From Candidatus Entotheonellaceae bacterium (lineage in GTDB: Bacteria; Tectomicrobia; Entotheonellia; Entotheonellales; Entotheonellaceae), in the NCBI GenBank assembly GCA_965238075.1, contig OZ250173.1:3168001-3232000 (forward strand): a stretch of DNA of 64,000 nt, given 5' to 3'. The position numbers were made by a program, and so were the translations under genes. Within the stretch, counting starts at the first letter, position 1; each line of letters opens with the position of its first letter. Positions 42,121 through 62,123 of this stretch are shown one piece after another. A model generated the notes under the pieces. That model saw only the letters and a program-made list of their open reading frames with translations, did no database searches and was not told where the DNA came from.

Positions 42121-43296
42121 ATGTGGCTGCCGGAGCGCATGAAGTTTGGCATCTTTCTCGGCCCCTTCCACCGCGTGGGGGAAAACCCGACCCTTGCCAT
42201 GGACCGCGATCTCGAGTTGATCCAGTGGCTCGACTACCTGGGTTTTGACGAAGCGTGGGTCGGCGAGCACCACAGCGCGGGCTGGGAAATCATCTCCTCT
42301 CCCGAGATATTCATCGCCGTGGCGGCAGATCGCACGCGCTACATCAAGCTCGGCACCGGGGTCATCAGCCTGCCCTACCACCACCCGTTCATGGTGGCCA
42401 ATCGCATGGTGCAGCTTGATCACATGACGCATGGCCGCGTGATGCTGGGCGTGGGGCCGGGGGCGCTGCCCGGCGATGCCTACATGATGGGCATTGACGC
42501 CACGACGCAGCGGGCGCGCATGGACGAGGCGATGGGCATTATTCTGCGGCTGTTCACCGAGACGGAACCCCTGACGTACAAGAGCGACTGGTTTGAGCTC
42601 CATGAGGCGCTTCTGCAGATCCGCCCTTACCAAAGGCCGTATATGCCGCTTGCCGTCGCCTCCGTGCAGTCGCCGGCCGGGGTGGCGCTGGCCGGCAAGT
42701 ACGGCGCCGCGGTTCTGACCATCACGACACCGCGCGACCCCTCTGCCGGCGGCGCCGACCTGAAGGGGCTCTGGACAATCGCCGAGCAGTCGGCTGCCGA
42801 GCACGGCCAGGAGGTGGACCGCGCGGACTGGCGGCTGGTCCTGCCCGTGCATCTGGCCGAAACCCGCAAGGAGGCGCTGGACCAGGCACGTCTCGGGGCC
42901 GGGCACTACCAGCGGGAGTATTTCGAGAGGACCATGGGGCGCGCGCAGATGATCGACGGCCCTTTGGATAAGGTGATCGACGGCATGGTCGAACGCGGCG
43001 CCTGGATCGTGGGAACGCCGGACGACTGCGTGGCCGGCATCAAGCGCCTGGCGGAGCAAAGCGACGGCTTTGGCGGGCTTCTGGTGCAAACGGTCGATTG
43101 GGCGCCGCGCGAGGCGATGCTGCACAGCTACGAGCTGCTGGCGCGTTACGTCATGCCGCAGTTCCAGGGAAGCGCGGCAGGCACCGCGGCCTCAAATACC
43201 TGGGCTTATGACCGGCGCGAGGTGCTCATGGCGGGGCGCACGCGGGCCCTCGACCACGCCCGCCAATTGTACGCGCAACGGCACGCTGTTTCATAG
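42121..43296 (+). CDS. LLM-class flavin-dependent oxidoreductase (LimB-like)
   Basis: GFDEAWVGEHHS, LGTGVISLPYHHP, LDHMTHGRVMLGVGPG. Confidence 0.9.
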   Translation: MWLPERMKFGIFLGPFHRVGENPTLAMDRDLELIQWLDYLGFDEAWVGEHHSAGWEIISSPEIFIAVAADRTRYIKLGTGVISLPYHHPFMVANRMVQLDHMTHGRVMLGVGPGALPGDAYMMGIDATTQRARMDEAMGIILRLFTETEPLTYKSDWFELHEALLQIRPYQRPYMPLAVASVQSPAGVALAGKYGAAVLTITTPRDPSAGGADLKGLWTIAEQSAAEHGQEVDRADWRLVLPVHLAETRKEALDQARLGAGHYQREYFERTMGRAQMIDGPLDKVIDGMVERGAWIVGTPDDCVAGIKRLAEQSDGFGGLLVQTVDWAPREAMLHSYELLARYVMPQFQGSAAGTAASNTWAYDRREVLMAGRTRALDHARQLYAQRHAVS

Positions 43297-43394
43297 CCGC
43301 GCACCATTTTGCTCCTCTTAATTGAACAAATACATAATTTGCACGGCATTGTGTTATGATACACAATTCATTGTTAAATAGGAGGAGGGCCAGT

Positions 43395-43658
43395 ATGACG
43401 AACGTTTACGTTGGTAATTTGCCGTTCAGTACGACCGAGGAAGAAATACGCAACATGTTCAGTGCTTATGGAGCCGTGGACAACGTCAGTTTGATCACGG
43501 ACCGGGAAACCGGGCGACTTCGGGGATTTGGATTCGTCGAGATGTCGGACGGTGCGGATGAGGCCATTGCTGCTCTTAATCAAACCGAAGTCGGTGGCAG
43601 ACGCTTGGTCGTGAATCTCGCCAAGCCGCGGGAGGAACGCCGTCCGCGGCGCTGGTAG
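43395..43658 (+). CDS. RRM RNA-binding protein
   Basis: RNP2 VYVGNL, RNP1 RGFGFVEM; GGAGG RBS. Confidence 0.94.
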   Translation: MTNVYVGNLPFSTTEEEIRNMFSAYGAVDNVSLITDRETGRLRGFGFVEMSDGADEAIAALNQTEVGGRRLVVNLAKPREERRPRRW

Positions 43659-43802
43659 CTTTGGGGCCTTCATCGGCCCTGGAATCGCGTCTCTCGGCAC
43701 CCCCGTTAAAGGTACCAGTTTTGACCTTGACCCTCGGCCAGGTCGTGTGTTAACAGTCTCCGAGTTAATGACATTTCACACTCTTCACCAAGTAAAGCGC
43801 TG

Positions 43803-43919
43803 ATGAACTTCGGCTCGACGGTTATCCAAGGTATTTCTCCCCACTGCACCCACTGCACCGGCGGTGCGTGCTGTAGCTACGAAGGCCACAATACCTTCAG
43901 ACGGGGGAGATTCGGATAA
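43803..43919 (+). CDS. Putative Cys-rich leader peptide (38 aa)
   Basis: Hand translation MNFGSTVIQGISPHCTHCTGGACCSYEGHNTFRRGRFG: 4 Cys in 10 codons, upstream of a terminator and the sulfite reductase; weak RBS. Confidence 0.6.
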   Translation: MNFGSTVIQGISPHCTHCTGGACCSYEGHNTFRRGRFG

Positions 43920-43958
43920 GCAACGTCTATTAGAAACCGATTTTTCAGGCGACATGCC

Positions 43959-43996
43959 AAGCCCACTCCCTGTTTGCAGGTGAGTGGGCTTTTTTT
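43959..43996 (+). terminator. Intrinsic terminator (probable attenuator) 70 nt upstream of the sulfite reductase
   Basis: AAGCCCACTCCCTG-TTTG-CAGG(T)GAGTGGGCTT stem ending in a T7 run. Confidence 0.85.
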
Positions 43997-44065
43997 GTTT
44001 CTACACGGCGCCGCAAAGCCGGCGCATAGCACCCCGCGACATCGACACGGTAAGGAAAATAGCCA

Positions 44066-46318
44066 ATGAGCGCTACCACCTGGAAGGAATGCCTGCAGGG
44101 TCGCCTGCCGGCGGCCTTGGAAGAGGAAATCGGCATTTTCGAGACGCAATTGACGTTGAAGCGTCAGGACAAGATTGACGACAAGATTTTTGCCGAGACG
44201 CGCCTGCGGCGCGGGGTCTATGGACAGCGCTATGACAATGGACAGCGCCACGACGGCGTGGAAACGCGGCCGTTGAGTTATCCCTGCGAGGGTCTCACCA
44301 AGGGACCGCAAACGGTGTGGGACGCGCCCGGCATGCAGCGCATCAAGATTCCCTTTGGCGGCCTCAACGCCGAGCAAATGGAGACGCTGGCCGACTTGGC
44401 CGAGGAGTACTCTGACGCCATCTGTCACGTCACCACCCGGCAGGATTTTCAACTCCACTTTGTGCACATCGACGATACCCCCGATCTCATGCGGCGCCTG
44501 GCCGCGGTGGGCATCACCACACAGGAAGCTTGCGGCAACGTGGTGCGCAACGTCACCGCCTGCCCCCTGGCCGGCGTTTGCAGCGACGAGAGCTTCGACG
44601 TCACGCCCTACGCCCACGCCTTGACGTATTTCCTCCTGAATCACAAGGATGCCCAGGATTTTGGCCGCAAGTTCAAGATCGCGTTTTCGGGCTGCACCGA
44701 CCACGCCTGCGGCTTGGCCAACATGCACGATCTCGGCCTCATTGCCAAAACGAGGGTGGAAAACGGCCAGTCTAGGCGCGGTTTCACCTTCTACGTTGGC
44801 GGCGGCTTGGGGGCCGTACCGCATCAGGCGCAGGTACTGGACGATTTTGTTGCAGAGGAAGAGATTCTGCCGTTGGCCCAGGCGGTCTGCCGGGTCTTCG
44901 CGCGGCTGGGCGAAAAGAAGAACCGCGCGCGGGCGCGCCTGAAATTTCTGGTGGCCAAGTTGGGCATTGAGGAATTTCGGCGGCTGGTGCTGGAAGCGCG
45001 CGCGATTCTGCCTCAGGACGAGCGCTGGACGCTCTACATGGACAACCTCGGCGTCACGGATGAAGCCCCCGCGCGGCCGGCTGGCGCCCTGCCGGAGGAA
45101 CCGCATCCCGAAGGGTTTGCCGACTGGATGGCGAGCAACGTCATGTTCCAGAGCCAACCCGGCTACGCCGTGGCGACCGTCTGTCTGCCCATGGGCGACC
45201 TCACCTCCGAGCAGATGCGCACCCTGGCCGACATCACACGGCGCTACAACGGCGGCCGCGCCCGCACCACGGTTGAGCAGAACATCGTGCTGCGTTGGAT
45301 CAGTCAGGCCGACCTCCCCGGCCTCTATACCGACCTTGCGGCGGTCGGCTTGGCGGAATCCGGGGCTTCCACCCTGCGCGACATCACTGCCTGCCCGGGC
45401 ACGGACACCTGCAAGCTCGGCATTTCGTCGTCCCGCGGTTTGGCGGCAGAACTGCGCCAGCGGGCGTCGGCGTGCAACGGCCAGCTCGACCCGTCCGTGA
45501 AGGACCTGAAGATCAAGATCAGCGGATGCTTCAACTCCTGCGGTCAGCATCACGTGGCCGACATTGGTTTCTACGGCGTCAGCCGCAAGTCGGACAACCA
45601 CGCGGTGCCGCACTTTCAGGTGGTGCTTGGCGGTCAGTGGACCGAGAACGCCGCCGCCTATGGCCTGGCCACCGTGGCGGTGCCGTCAAAGCGCGTGCCG
45701 GAGGCGGTGGATCGCATTACGGACTTCTACGTGGCGGAGCGGGAGCCAGAGGAAAGTTTTCAGGCTTTTATCAAGCGCACCGGTAAGGCCAAAATCCGCG
45801 CGCTCCTTCAGGATCTGACGAAGGTGCCGGCGTATGCCGAGGACAGTTCTCACTATTCCGATTGGGGCGACCCGCGCGAATACAGCCTTGGCGACATGGG
45901 CGTTGGCGAGTGCGCCGGTGAGGTTGTGTCGTTGACCGAATTTGGGCTGGCCAGCAGCGAGCGGCAGGTCTTCGAGGCGCAGGTGGACCTGGACAACCGG
46001 GACTTTCCCAAGGCATCGCAAACGGCTTTCCAGGCCATGCTGGAGGCGGCCAAGGCCCTCATTCAGGTCTACAACATCGACGTCATCAACGATGCGGACC
46101 AGATCGTCGAGGAATTCCGGCGGCGTTTTTACGATACCGAGTTGTTCCATGACCCTTACGCCGGTCCCAAGTTCGCCAATTACCTGTTTCACGCCGCCAA
46201 CGGCGGCCGGGCCGATACCAGCCCGGCGGCGGTTCACCGGCGTATCGAGGAGGCCCAGCTTTTCATCGAGGCGGCCTATTCCTGCTACAGCCGTCTCGGT
46301 CAGCGGCAGCCGGTGTAA
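44066..46318 (+). CDS. Siroheme nitrite/sulfite reductase with C-terminal extension
   Basis: GVYGQR, TTRQDFQ, RNVTACP, RKFKIAFSGC, CPGTDTCKLG...SGCFNSCG siroheme/4Fe-4S ligands. Confidence 0.92.
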   Translation: MSATTWKECLQGRLPAALEEEIGIFETQLTLKRQDKIDDKIFAETRLRRGVYGQRYDNGQRHDGVETRPLSYPCEGLTKGPQTVWDAPGMQRIKIPFGGLNAEQMETLADLAEEYSDAICHVTTRQDFQLHFVHIDDTPDLMRRLAAVGITTQEACGNVVRNVTACPLAGVCSDESFDVTPYAHALTYFLLNHKDAQDFGRKFKIAFSGCTDHACGLANMHDLGLIAKTRVENGQSRRGFTFYVGGGLGAVPHQAQVLDDFVAEEEILPLAQAVCRVFARLGEKKNRARARLKFLVAKLGIEEFRRLVLEARAILPQDERWTLYMDNLGVTDEAPARPAGALPEEPHPEGFADWMASNVMFQSQPGYAVATVCLPMGDLTSEQMRTLADITRRYNGGRARTTVEQNIVLRWISQADLPGLYTDLAAVGLAESGASTLRDITACPGTDTCKLGISSSRGLAAELRQRASACNGQLDPSVKDLKIKISGCFNSCGQHHVADIGFYGVSRKSDNHAVPHFQVVLGGQWTENAAAYGLATVAVPSKRVPEAVDRITDFYVAEREPEESFQAFIKRTGKAKIRALLQDLTKVPAYAEDSSHYSDWGDPREYSLGDMGVGECAGEVVSLTEFGLASSERQVFEAQVDLDNRDFPKASQTAFQAMLEAAKALIQVYNIDVINDADQIVEEFRRRFYDTELFHDPYAGPKFANYLFHAANGGRADTSPAAVHRRIEEAQLFIEAAYSCYSRLGQRQPV

Positions 46319-46338: not shown

Positions 46339-46947
46339 ATGGAAAGTGTGAAGTACGACCTTAAATTGTTCCTCCAGGAACCCGCCGAGGTCGATCTGCA
46401 AGACTTCATCCCCGTCTTTCACGACTGGATTCAACACCAGTGCCTCGACGAGTTGCTCATTGACGTCGTGGATTATCGGCACGTTCACAACGGACCGGGG
46501 GTGATGCTGATCGCCCACGACGCGCATTACGCGATGGATATGGCCGATGGCCGCATGGGCCTCCTATACAGCCGTCGGCGCGAAACCCACCCTACCCGAA
46601 ACGCGATACAAAGCGTGACGGAGCGTCTGCAATCTGTCGTGCAATGTGCCCTGACGGCGTGTCAACTTCTGGAAGCGGAACCGTCTCTGCAAGGCCGTCT
46701 GAGGTTCCGTACCGATGAGCTGCTGTTACGGGTAAACGACCGCTTGGTATCCCCTGTCCCCGCGGCTTTCGACGACCTGCAGGCGCACTTGGGACCGGTC
46801 CTGGAAAGGCTTTACCCGGACCATCAAGTGGAGATGGAGCGCTGCGGCGGGCCGATGTCCCGTTTGGCGGTGAAGATTACGGCTTCCGACGATACGGATA
46901 TGGGGAGGCTACACAGCCGGCTGGGTCACGATGAATTGTCGCTGTAG
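46339..46947 (+). CDS. Hypothetical protein co-transcribed with the reductase
   Basis: AGGAGG RBS, 20-nt gap; FIPVFHDWIQ...LLIDVVDYRHVHNGPGVMLIAH. Confidence 0.75.
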   Translation: MESVKYDLKLFLQEPAEVDLQDFIPVFHDWIQHQCLDELLIDVVDYRHVHNGPGVMLIAHDAHYAMDMADGRMGLLYSRRRETHPTRNAIQSVTERLQSVVQCALTACQLLEAEPSLQGRLRFRTDELLLRVNDRLVSPVPAAFDDLQAHLGPVLERLYPDHQVEMERCGGPMSRLAVKITASDDTDMGRLHSRLGHDELSL

Positions 46948-47131
46948 TTTCGTGGTTTGGGGTAACATCGCAAGTACTCTCTGAAGCGGTCGCACGGAGC
47001 ACCTCCATTCTCGGTTGTGTTGGCTAGCACAGCCCTAGAGTTGGAGGGCCCGTGTGGCTACCTCAAGAACACCAGTGCTGTTAGAAAGTCAAAGTTTTTG
47101 GCCGAATTCTCCCTTTGTCGTTTCACCATTA

Positions 47132-47160
47132 TCGGATTACGCTGCGCCAATCCGACCTAC
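47132..47160. repeat. REP family B copy
   Basis: TCGGATTACGCTGCGCCAATCCGACCTAC. Confidence 0.7.
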
Positions 47161-47215
47161 TCCATACGCGTTCACAGGAACCGGAGCGGACATTCCCCAC
47201 CCTAACGCAGAAGGA

Positions 47216-48806
47216 TCAATACGGATACGGCATCGGCCCGCACGGCACCTCGATGAGCGTCGGCGCCTCCACGGCCAGCGCCTCGCGGAGTTGCGCCTCG
47301 AGCTCTTCCGCGGTGGCGGCGCGAGCGCCGCGCACGCCGAATGCCTTGGCGAGCGTCATGAAATCCGGGTTGTGCAATTCGGAGCCGTAGACACGCCCCT
47401 GGAAGCGGTCGCGCTGGTCGCGCAGGACGTTGCCGAAGGCGCTGTCGTTGAAGACGATGACGACAGCGTTGATCTTCTGCTGCACCGCGGTGGCGAGTTC
47501 CTGGACGTTGTACATAAAGCCGCCGTCGCCGGAAATGGCGACCACCGCCTTATCGGGACAGGCGACTTTGGCGCCAAGGGCGGTGGGATAGGCGTAGCCC
47601 AGATTGCCGAAATACGAGGACGTCAAGAACGTGCCAGCGTGGTAAACCGGGAAATAGGCGCGGCTGTAATACCCCACCTGCGTCATGCCGCAGATGATAA
47701 TGCCATCCTCCGGCACGGCATTGCGGATGGCGCCGACGAACCCGGCGAGCGGCTGCAGCTGGGCGTGCTCGCTGGTGCGGCGGGCCTGCTTGACGGCGGC
47801 GATCTCCTGCTCGCGGCCCGACTGCGCCGGCATGAGGCCGCTGACCGCGTCGTAGAGGGCTTGCAGGGTTTTCTTCGCATCCCCGACCAGGCCGACTGTC
47901 TTCTCATAGTTGCGACCGATCTCTGACGGATCAACGTCGATCTGCACGACTGTCTGACCGCTGAGGATTTCGGGACTGGCCAGCCGCGTGCCTACCGCCA
48001 GCACCACGTCCGTCTGCTTCATGTAGTCACTGGTAATCGGGTCGTGCCGCAGCCGCAAGGCCCCGAGCGCCAAATCGTGGCGGTCCGATAGCGCCCCCTT
48101 GCCCTCGCTGGTCGTGAGGACCGGCGCCTGTAGGTACTCCGCCAGCCGTTGCAGCGCCGCGCCGGCCTGCGACGAAATAGCCCCGCCGCCCGCCAGAATC
48201 AGGGGTTTGCTGGCCCCCTTCAGCGTTTCGGCGCCCGCTTTAACGCGGTCGCTGCTGGCCGCTTCACGCTCGGGCTCGGCCGGATCGAGCAACTTGACGT
48301 CGGCAGTTTCGGCCAGCGTTTCCGGGGGAATCTCAATTTCCACCGGCCGCGGGCGGCCCGTCTTCAACTGGTAGAACGCCTCGTGCACCGCCTCCGGCAC
48401 TTCCTGCGCCTTCAGAATCCGCCGCGTCCACTTCGTTACCGGACGAATGGTGTCCAGCTGGTCATTCACCTCGTGCAGCATGCCCCGGTCCACGCCGATG
48501 AAGTCGCGCTGAATCTGCCCCGACACCACCAGGATGGGCGACGACGCCGAGTACGCCGTGCCGATGCCCGCCGAGGCGTTCTGCAGCCACCAGCGCCGTG
48601 CCAATGTCGCCGCTGGCGCGCGCGTAGCCGTCGGCCATGTAGGTGGTGGCCTGCTCGTGGCGCACCGGAATGAATCGGATATCCGCTTCGTCGTACAAGC
48701 CGTCGAGCAAGTGGTAGAGCTGCACGCCGGGCAGACCGAAAATGACCCGCACGCCTTCGCGGTGCAGCGATTTTGCCAGGGCTTGACCGCCGGTCATCTT
48801 AGACAT
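47216..48806 (-). pseudogene. Thiamine-diphosphate enzyme (acetolactate synthase-like), frameshifted near 48587
   Basis: N-terminal frame (IFGLPGVQ, RHEQ, MADGYARA, GTALV) switches to the frame carrying LQNASAG...GDGGF...FNDSAFG; the usual PGPG motif is missing at the junction. Confidence 0.8.
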
Positions 48807-62079: not shown

Positions 62080-62123
62080 GCTTGCCCCCTCTCCCCTGGC
62101 GGGAGAGGGCTGGGGCGAGGGGG
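62080..62123. repeat. CCCTCTCCC/GGGAGAGGG palindromic element between convergent genes
   Basis: CCCTCTCCC-CTGGC-GGGAGAGGG followed by GGGGCGAGGGG; single copy in this window. Confidence 0.45.

Follow-up and report, generated by a model that had tools for sequence, protein, structure and literature searches.

Background

What does a 38-codon open reading frame (ORF) with four cysteine codons, closely followed by a strong intrinsic terminator, do in front of a siroheme-type reductase gene? The question is raised by a locus in a 64,000-nt stretch of the genome of a Candidatus Entotheonellaceae bacterium (contig OZ250173.1, positions 3,168,001 to 3,232,000; the whole stretch analysed is hereafter called the window, and positions follow its own numbering unless the contig is named). 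The ORF (43803–43919), the terminator (43961–43996) and the reductase gene (44066–46318) follow one another on the forward strand, with the reductase start lying 146 nt downstream of the ORF. Here we argue that this element is very probably a ribosome-mediated leader-peptide transcription attenuator that senses Cys-tRNA and acts through a terminator switch, and that the leader peptide, judging by the conservation of its own sequence, is more than a carrier of Cys codons.

A preliminary description of this DNA had proposed a cysteine attenuator with the 1:2 / 2:3 / 3:4 pairing logic, built from the 38-codon ORF with its four Cys codons, three pairing segments and a 70-nt gap to the reductase ATG. 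All of these parts are present where it had placed them, and the attenuator itself is supported by a paralogous leader in front of cysH, by polycysteine leaders in a sister genus (g5), by tandem terminators, by covariation in the 1:2 helix and by constrained folds.

Coding content and conservation of the leader

The leader ORF runs from an ATG at 43803 to a TAA at 43917–43919 and encodes MNFGSTVIQGISPHCTHCTGGACCSYEGHNTFRRGRFG, with Cys codons at 43845, 43854, 43869 and 43872. At four Cys in 38 codons, the Cys enrichment within the window's own leader is modest. The conserved cysteines are the adjacent pair C23–C24 (codons TGC TGT, 43869–43874), which we propose as the stalling site, and, within the genus, C15. 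Outside the genus C15 is not conserved, and only the CC pair (codons 23–24) is invariant across the family (14/14 aligned leaders), its counterpart being CCC in most other genera. In four of the six genomes of the genus, Gly replaces the second Cys, C18. In the same 14 leaders, T6, T16, T19, G20 and G21 are invariant along with C23 and C24, and H17 is nearly so. Together these residues belong to a motif, STIIQG-x7-THxTGGxCC, whose spacing is invariant across paralogs and genera and which is under selection at the protein level.

Across the five other genomes of the genus the whole leader is 83–95% identical to that of the window, with the differences falling at synonymous sites. Between the window's genome (G000) and its most distant congener (G004), codons 2–26 show a proportion of synonymous differences (pS) of 0.46 and of nonsynonymous differences (pN) of 0.03, third positions taking eight of the ten changes. 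Comparisons between genera gave pS values of 0.27–0.96 and pN values of 0.04–0.28, and the paralogous cysH leader described below gave a pS of about 0.3 and a pN of 0.01–0.04. A pN/pS of about 0.05–0.3 amounts to purifying selection at the amino-acid level, which implies, as far as substitution patterns can tell, that the ORF is a real, translated gene. The C-terminal third of the peptide is not conserved as protein, and the RNA of that part is retained: in G004 this part of the peptide is frameshifted in both leaders, and in two metagenome relatives (L085 and L093) premature stops end the peptide early, with the RNA of segment 2, the purine-rich strand described below, kept in each case.

The terminator and its specificity

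The preliminary description had also placed a strong intrinsic terminator before the reductase gene, and this stands, with its limits here set at 43961–43996. The 5' arm (segment 3, 43961–43972), the loop (43973–43976) and the 3' arm (segment 4, 43977–43989, with a bulged U at 43981) read GCCCACTCCCTG/TTTG/CAGG-T-GAGTGGGC, fold at -21.3 kcal/mol and are followed by seven T residues (43990–43996), from the end of which 70 nt remain to the reductase ATG at 44066. As a whole, the region 43780–44000 folds with a z-score of -4.0, and none of 200 shuffled sequences folded as well. A simple terminator scan of the window missed the hairpin at 43961–43989 because of the one-base bulge in its stem, and simple consensus scans missed bulged terminators as well as the loose promoters.

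The hairpin is specific to Cys leaders. Among 305 terminator-like sites in the genome only nine have a short CC-containing ORF upstream, and the strongest hairpins of these nine belong to the two leaders, that of the window and that of cysH. When the 17 species genomes of the phylum in our collection were searched with the pattern CCCACTYCC-N6-18-GTGGGY-N0-2-TTTT, it matched 14 distinct sites in 11 genomes, every one of them behind a Cys leader; the reversed pattern, used as a control, gave no match in the same 17 genomes. The terminator is conserved in five of the six genera of the family and is present in tandem in two of those, and across 15 copies of its stem 97.6% of cells are paired.

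Alternative pairings and constrained folds

Three segments, with the letters TCTCCCC at 43836–43842, CAGACGGGGGAGA at 43898–43910 and CTCCCTGTTTG at 43966–43976, had been named as the parts of the switch. In the predicted folds segment 2, the purine-rich strand that ends the ORF (43898–43918), pairs either backwards with segment 1 (within 43823–43842) or forwards with the terminator (within 43961–43976), the former through 43904–43910 and 43914–43918 and the latter, with the 5' arm, through 43898–43909. It also falls inside the footprint of a ribosome that has the stop codon in its A site.

The backward pairing is supported by comparison. An RNAalifold consensus of an ungapped alignment of thirteen 117-nt ORFs contains a helix of 12 pairs in which segment 1, the 5' strand of this anti-antiterminator, contributes 43823–43827 (to 43914–43918) and 43836–43842 (to 43904–43910). 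In this helix 91% of cells are paired, as against 47–58% when the partners are slid along each other; three pairs change on both sides, giving 12 cells with double changes, and the covariation score was reached by none of 500 shuffles. In one of the covarying pairs the partners are the central base of the stop codon (UAA/UGA) and the third position of codon 7, where the change is synonymous. The alignment of upstream regions that had been suggested as a check supports the proposal, with Cys leaders conserved before orthologous reductases and a 1:2 stem that carries compensatory changes.

The forward pairing was assessed under three conditions in minimum free energy (MFE) folds of 25 leaders with terminators, each sequence being cut at the terminator loop so that the 3' arm was absent; an antiterminator was scored when at least six of ten arm bases paired with a partner lying 0–25 nt before the stop. 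Without a ribosome the arm was paired to the ORF end in three of the 25 leaders; with a ribosome holding the first C of the CC pair in its A site and the 3' side folding alone, it was so paired in 22; and with a ribosome at the stop codon, in one. All three states agree with the attenuator model in 19/25 leaders; folds with and without such masking had been suggested as a check in the preliminary description. In the model-conforming folds 1:2 forms without a ribosome and 2:3 with a ribosome at CC, and the terminator arm stays free with a ribosome at the stop.

MFE folds also place the leader start codon in a small hairpin (43799–43814, GCUGA / UCGGC), and an equivalent hairpin with different letters (AUCGA / UCGAU) is found in the leader of G008, a genome of another genus.

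A paralogous leader precedes cysH

Given that the genome has a GC content of 62% and that a broad scan for Cys-rich frames was swamped by spurious ones, our leader searches rest on scans anchored in the motif and the terminator. A genome-wide search with the terminator arm and the peptide motif returned exactly one further copy, and only two ORFs in the genome carry TH.TGG.CC. The paralogous leader lies at 3,040,653–3,040,775 of the contig, encodes MTDISTTSYRFSSTSLCTHETGGACCRGTVCCVCQPRGCG and is followed by CCGCCCACTCCCTGCCGTAGGTGAGTGGGCGG and a T-run; 121 nt after its stop begins a PAPS/APS reductase gene (cysH) that passes the NCBIfam cut-offs. Both leaders, the one before the NIR_SIR reductase gene and the one before the PAPS/APS reductase gene, are present in all six genomes of the genus. 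The gene upstream of the cysH leader encodes a short-chain dehydrogenase and that upstream of the window's leader an RRM protein, so that the leader unit moves together with the gene that follows it.

Identity of the downstream reductase

The gene proposed to be regulated (44066–46318) encodes a siroheme-type reductase of 750 aa with the Pfam domains NIR_SIR and NIR_SIR_ferr. It reaches no NCBIfam equivalog cut-off, its best match being to the NirA family at 283 bits against a cut-off of 523. The enzyme is probably an assimilatory sulfite reductase. The preliminary description had suggested sulfite rather than nitrite as its substrate; the family models do not settle the matter, and the reading is plausible because control appears to be shared with cysH.

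The gene has an AAGGA at 44052–44056, 56 nt after the terminator, which is unpaired with the leader in the folds. Between the terminator and this ribosome-binding site lies a GC-rich hairpin without a U-tract (44008–44025), found by RNAalifold over the six genomes of the genus; its seven pairs are kept in all six, and none shows a compensatory change. Genus g3, another member of the family, has a comparable hairpin immediately 5' of the Shine-Dalgarno sequence. The two ORFs that follow the reductase gene (46339–46947 and 47054–47926) match no Pfam or NCBIfam family.

Distribution of the leader

A profile of the peptide matches 11 of the 17 phylum genomes, all from one family. In G010 the reductase ortholog has the peptide (MNHGSTIIQGISSRRTHQTGGMCCC...) and a tandem pair of terminators ahead of it, and in genus g3 the peptide (e.g. 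VNYGATIIQGISSRRTHRTGGYCCCR) precedes the reductase ortholog without this terminator. In genus g5 the ortholog is 77–78% identical and is preceded by polycysteine leaders (MMFLSACLCATPCCCCCCACCCCAAGGGGAGRLSG and ...ALCCCCCCCCACCCCNTGGSG) having Cys runs of 6–8 and a total of 12–13 Cys, which are followed by the same terminator, GCCCACT(C/T)CC...GGGGGTGGGC. In G006, MMRLVLLPLPCCCCQGCCPCRQGGGVT and a tandem pair of terminators lie ahead of another NIR_SIR gene. The same leader and terminator also precede a RimK-like ATP-grasp ligase gene at three loci (L019 in G008, L086 and L088); this enzyme may consume cysteine or ligate peptides under the same control. A longer leader variant of 56 codons (MNLNATVIQGISSHLTDQTGGTCCCW...) with a GCCCATTCCC terminator lies before a 206-aa ORF of unknown function in G011 (L020, contig C209), and its folds depart from the three-state logic.

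Reductase homologues in the two other families of the phylum (G014, G015 and G016) showed no Cys leader under the filter used. At one of these loci (L056, about 915–980, in G016) a strong terminator-like hairpin with a T8 run stands about 70 nt before an NIR_SIR gene; the filter found no Cys-rich short ORF there, and the hairpin may belong to a different leader.

Beyond the collection, a search of one genome per species over 185,579 species gave 18 pattern matches, of which nine were confirmed as loci of this kind; eight carry the label Entotheonella or Tectimicrobiota, and the ninth, a metagenome-assembled genome labelled Gammaproteobacteria, is the G008 contig. Joint Genome Institute metagenomes yielded 14 loci. 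Twelve are true relatives of the leader, all with the T-H-x-T-G-G-x-C-C spacing that is fixed in both paralogs, and the remaining two (L095 and L096) were rejected because they match by chance within a long ORF. Five relatives of the leader peptide are present among 1.84 billion representative proteins, each 38–50 aa long and with THQTGG, which is followed by xCC in four and by xGCC in one (P0004).

Promoter and transcripts

A scan with a loose pattern found a promoter-like pair before the leader, TTGACC (43727–43732) and TTAACA (43750–43755) separated by a 17-nt spacer. The candidate -10 element ends 47 nt before the leader ATG, which predicts a 5' untranslated region of about 40 nt and hence a leadered mRNA. 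Of 11 leaders from six genera, 10 have a match to the pattern, TTGAC(A/C)-N16-18-T(A/T)(A/G)(A/G)N(T/A/G), that ends 36–51 nt ahead of the start codon; a strict promoter scan lists no leader promoter at 43727–43755. A separate promoter between terminator and reductase had been named as an observation that would count against attenuation, and the strict scan found no promoter-like site at 43997–44065.

Directly upstream of the leader lies the gene for a 100-aa RNA-binding protein with an RRM domain (43356–43658). At its end stands a hairpin (43665–43682), and since this has no U-tract, RRM transcripts may run into the leader. Contigs assembled from RNA libraries (four runs from two studies; region 43300–44900) bridge the terminator in three runs and one ends at 44076, although such contigs show neither transcript ends nor levels and may hold DNA, and so do not bear on attenuation.

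Proposed mechanism

In the mechanism that we favour, transcription would begin at a promoter some 75 nt ahead of the leader ORF and give a transcript with the 38-codon leader as its first cistron. In the absence of a ribosome, or when the ribosome reaches the stop codon, segment 2 would be engaged in pairing with segment 1 or hidden under the ribosome; with segment 2 unavailable, the hairpin at 43961–43989 and its U-tract would form and transcription would end 70 nt before the reductase gene. When Cys-tRNA is scarce, the ribosome would stall with the Cys-Cys codons (43869–43874) in its decoding centre, and this ribosome, or ribosomes queued behind it, would keep segment 1 from segment 2. Segment 2 could then pair with the emerging 5' arm of the terminator, and RNA polymerase would read through into the reductase gene. 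If cysH is controlled likewise by its paralogous leader, two unlinked steps of sulfate assimilation would share one signal. The analysis shows the sequence features and the predicted folds; we infer the cysteine response and every kinetic step in this sequence.

A number of observations weigh against this reading, several of them concerning the RNA. The invariant CC pair lies 27–32 nt past segment 1, inside the loop of helix 1:2, and a single ribosome stalled there would therefore leave segment 1 uncovered, so that the switch needs steric exclusion or queued ribosomes. The preliminary description had the stalled ribosome mask segment 1, and this survives only for a ribosome at C15, a position not conserved outside the genus. 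When pairs are allowed to span the ribosome, the switch to 2:3 is seen in only eight of the 25 leaders, the window's included. The 2:3 duplex of the window's leader reaches -14.4 kcal/mol, a stability that mononucleotide shuffles of its G-rich strand match (p = 0.16), and over 16 leaders the corresponding p values range from 0.01 to 0.72, most of them not significant. The double changes in helix 1:2 mostly set one genus apart from the others and so represent few independent events. In the terminator covariation is slight, with six of 12 pairs never varying and two showing double changes. This invariance may reflect chained constraints, because the 5' arm must match both the 3' arm and segment 2, which is itself tied to segment 1, and segment 1 encodes conserved residues of the peptide.

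Other points against it concern the coding side and the distribution. The Cys codons number only three or four, C18 giving way to Gly in most congeners (four of six), and the Shine-Dalgarno sequence of the leader is weak. The three genomes of genus g3 and two metagenome relatives keep the peptide and show no such terminator, and some leaders precede genes without an evident sulfur role (an unknown gene in G011, and the RimK-like ATP-grasp gene at the three loci named above).

Alternative explanations

The conservation of the peptide admits bolder readings. The leader could be a new regulatory nascent peptide whose motif, held in the ribosomal tunnel, would let two Cys codons sense cysteine supply sharply or would itself bind a sulfur metabolite or cysteine in free form, with an interchangeable downstream platform (one terminator, tandem terminators or none); we give this extension only a small chance of being correct. 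A related and somewhat less probable view, which we regard as unlikely, keeps terminator control as the output and attributes the arrest at CC to the sequence of the nascent peptide (STIIQG...THxTGG in the exit tunnel), which might also sense free cysteine or a sulfur metabolite. Upstream of CC it is indeed the peptide and not the RNA that is conserved (pN/pS 0.05–0.3, with synonymous sites saturated between genera); the spacing of the motif is fixed in both paralogs and in the 12 true metagenome relatives, and all 22 residues preceding CC would presumably sit in the tunnel. Retention of the peptide without the terminator in genus g3 points the same way. However, in sister genera these genes lie behind polycysteine leaders that lack the motif, and the motif is therefore not required for control. 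Within the attenuator that we prefer, the conserved peptide may nonetheless assist or tune stalling from inside the ribosome.

Less probable again is that the ORF specifies an independent small protein containing cysteine (metal- or redox-active, or the precursor of a modified peptide) with a promoter and terminator of its own, its adjacency to sulfur genes reflecting co-expression rather than regulation in cis. Such a protein would account for the amino-acid-level purifying selection on codons 2–26, for the conservation of STIIQG...THxTGGxCC across genera and in the five database peptides, and for the promoter-like site and strong terminator of the unit. It would not be expected to have its C-terminal third frameshifted or truncated in several lineages that keep the RNA, nor to be replaced in sister genera by unrelated polycysteine ORFs in the same place with the same terminator. 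Furthermore, codon 7 and the stop codon covary at the RNA level, in 22 of 25 leaders the end of the ORF is complementary to the terminator arm, and Pfam annotation of the neighbourhood shows no modifying enzymes adjoining the ORF. That the hairpin is merely a constitutive terminator of the upstream RRM gene or of a small RNA, with the reductase transcribed from its own promoter and the Cys codons coincidental, is very improbable: the RRM gene ends at 43658 with only a U-tract-less hairpin after it and the strict scan gave no leader promoter, but the genes upstream of the leader and terminator vary (the dehydrogenase at the cysH leader and others in other genera), no copy of the terminator sequence was found except behind Cys leaders, 43997–44065 holds no promoter-like site and the ORF is under purifying selection.

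Comparison with known systems

Classical attenuators govern the trp, his, leu, thr, ilv and phe operons of enterobacteria. The element described here resembles the trp/his type in its translated leader with codons for the end product, its intrinsic terminator and its strand pairing (1:2 or 2:3). It differs in that the amino acid is cysteine, that helix 1:2 holds the regulatory codons in its loop and segment 1 does not contain them, that strong conservation extends to the non-regulatory part of the peptide, and that two unlinked genes each have a paralogous leader. TnaC, SecM and SpeFL are nascent-peptide sensors of free ligands or of force, acting mostly via Rho or translation. With these the leader shares conserved residues over about 20 positions before the stalling site (a predicted one here) and control of downstream transcription; unlike them, it has an intrinsic terminator as its output, and arrest is here only a proposal.

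Rfam was searched permissively on 43000–44800, and at the gathering threshold on the whole window and on six related loci, a known RNA family having been named as a possible explanation of the structure. No leader or riboswitch family reached the gathering score in the window or at the six loci, and the best weak matches had E values of at least 2.4. No terminator-type cysteine attenuator was found in the full-text literature searched, a coverage that leaves out most subscription journals.

Two groups of actinobacterial leaders come closest. In the mycobacterial "Cys ribulon", polycysteine leaderless short ORFs free a Shine-Dalgarno sequence of the downstream gene that their Cys tract sequesters by pairing, i.e. 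control is translational, and the authors noted that attenuation for cysteine mediated by an upstream ORF had not been described previously (Canestrari et al. 2020, bioRxiv 10.1101/834739). As in that system, Cys codons would report cysteine supply, several cysteine-metabolism loci have one ORF each and some non-Cys residues are conserved; unlike those elements, which are leaderless and lack a terminator, the present one has a predicted 5' untranslated region of about 40 nt and a strong terminator (10.1101/834739), and in the folds its reductase Shine-Dalgarno sequence does not pair with the leader. Candidate leader peptides with Cys runs near the stop have been reported upstream of cys/cbs operons in Mycobacterium, Propionibacterium acnes and Bifidobacterium longum; no conserved terminator hairpins accompany them and Rho-dependent termination is proposed (Seliverstov et al. 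2005, PMC1262725). Both those leaders and ours are short Cys-codon ORFs before cysteine biosynthesis genes, and the difference is the canonical intrinsic terminator and alternative antiterminator found here (PMC1262725).

Other features of the window

A GC-rich short palindrome resembling repetitive extragenic palindromic (REP) elements, with the core CTCACCCC-AACCCTCTCCC-N-CCAGGGGAGAGGGAGC, is present once in the window, at 62087–62109, where none is expected by chance; more than 35 further copies lie on both strands across the genome.

Conclusions

The literature searched places cysteine leaders only in Actinobacteria and without terminators, and in the element described here the design for cysteine is complete, with terminator and antiterminator; its phylum is small, uncultured and little studied, with relatives recorded under the labels Candidatus Entotheonella and Tectimicrobiota. 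The attenuation mechanism itself is of the textbook kind; what is unusual is the conserved peptide in its cysteine version. The phylum, the division of the putative regulon between two loci with paralogous leaders and an output module that varies also set this case apart. Conservation of the non-cysteine part of the leader at the protein level is unexpected for a simple codon counter, and it makes the leader a concrete candidate for a peptide-assisted stalling sensor. For the bacteria that carry it, the element would join two unlinked genes, that of the NIR_SIR reductase and cysH, in one ribosome-read regulon, and this connection helps to annotate the reductase as an assimilatory sulfite reductase.

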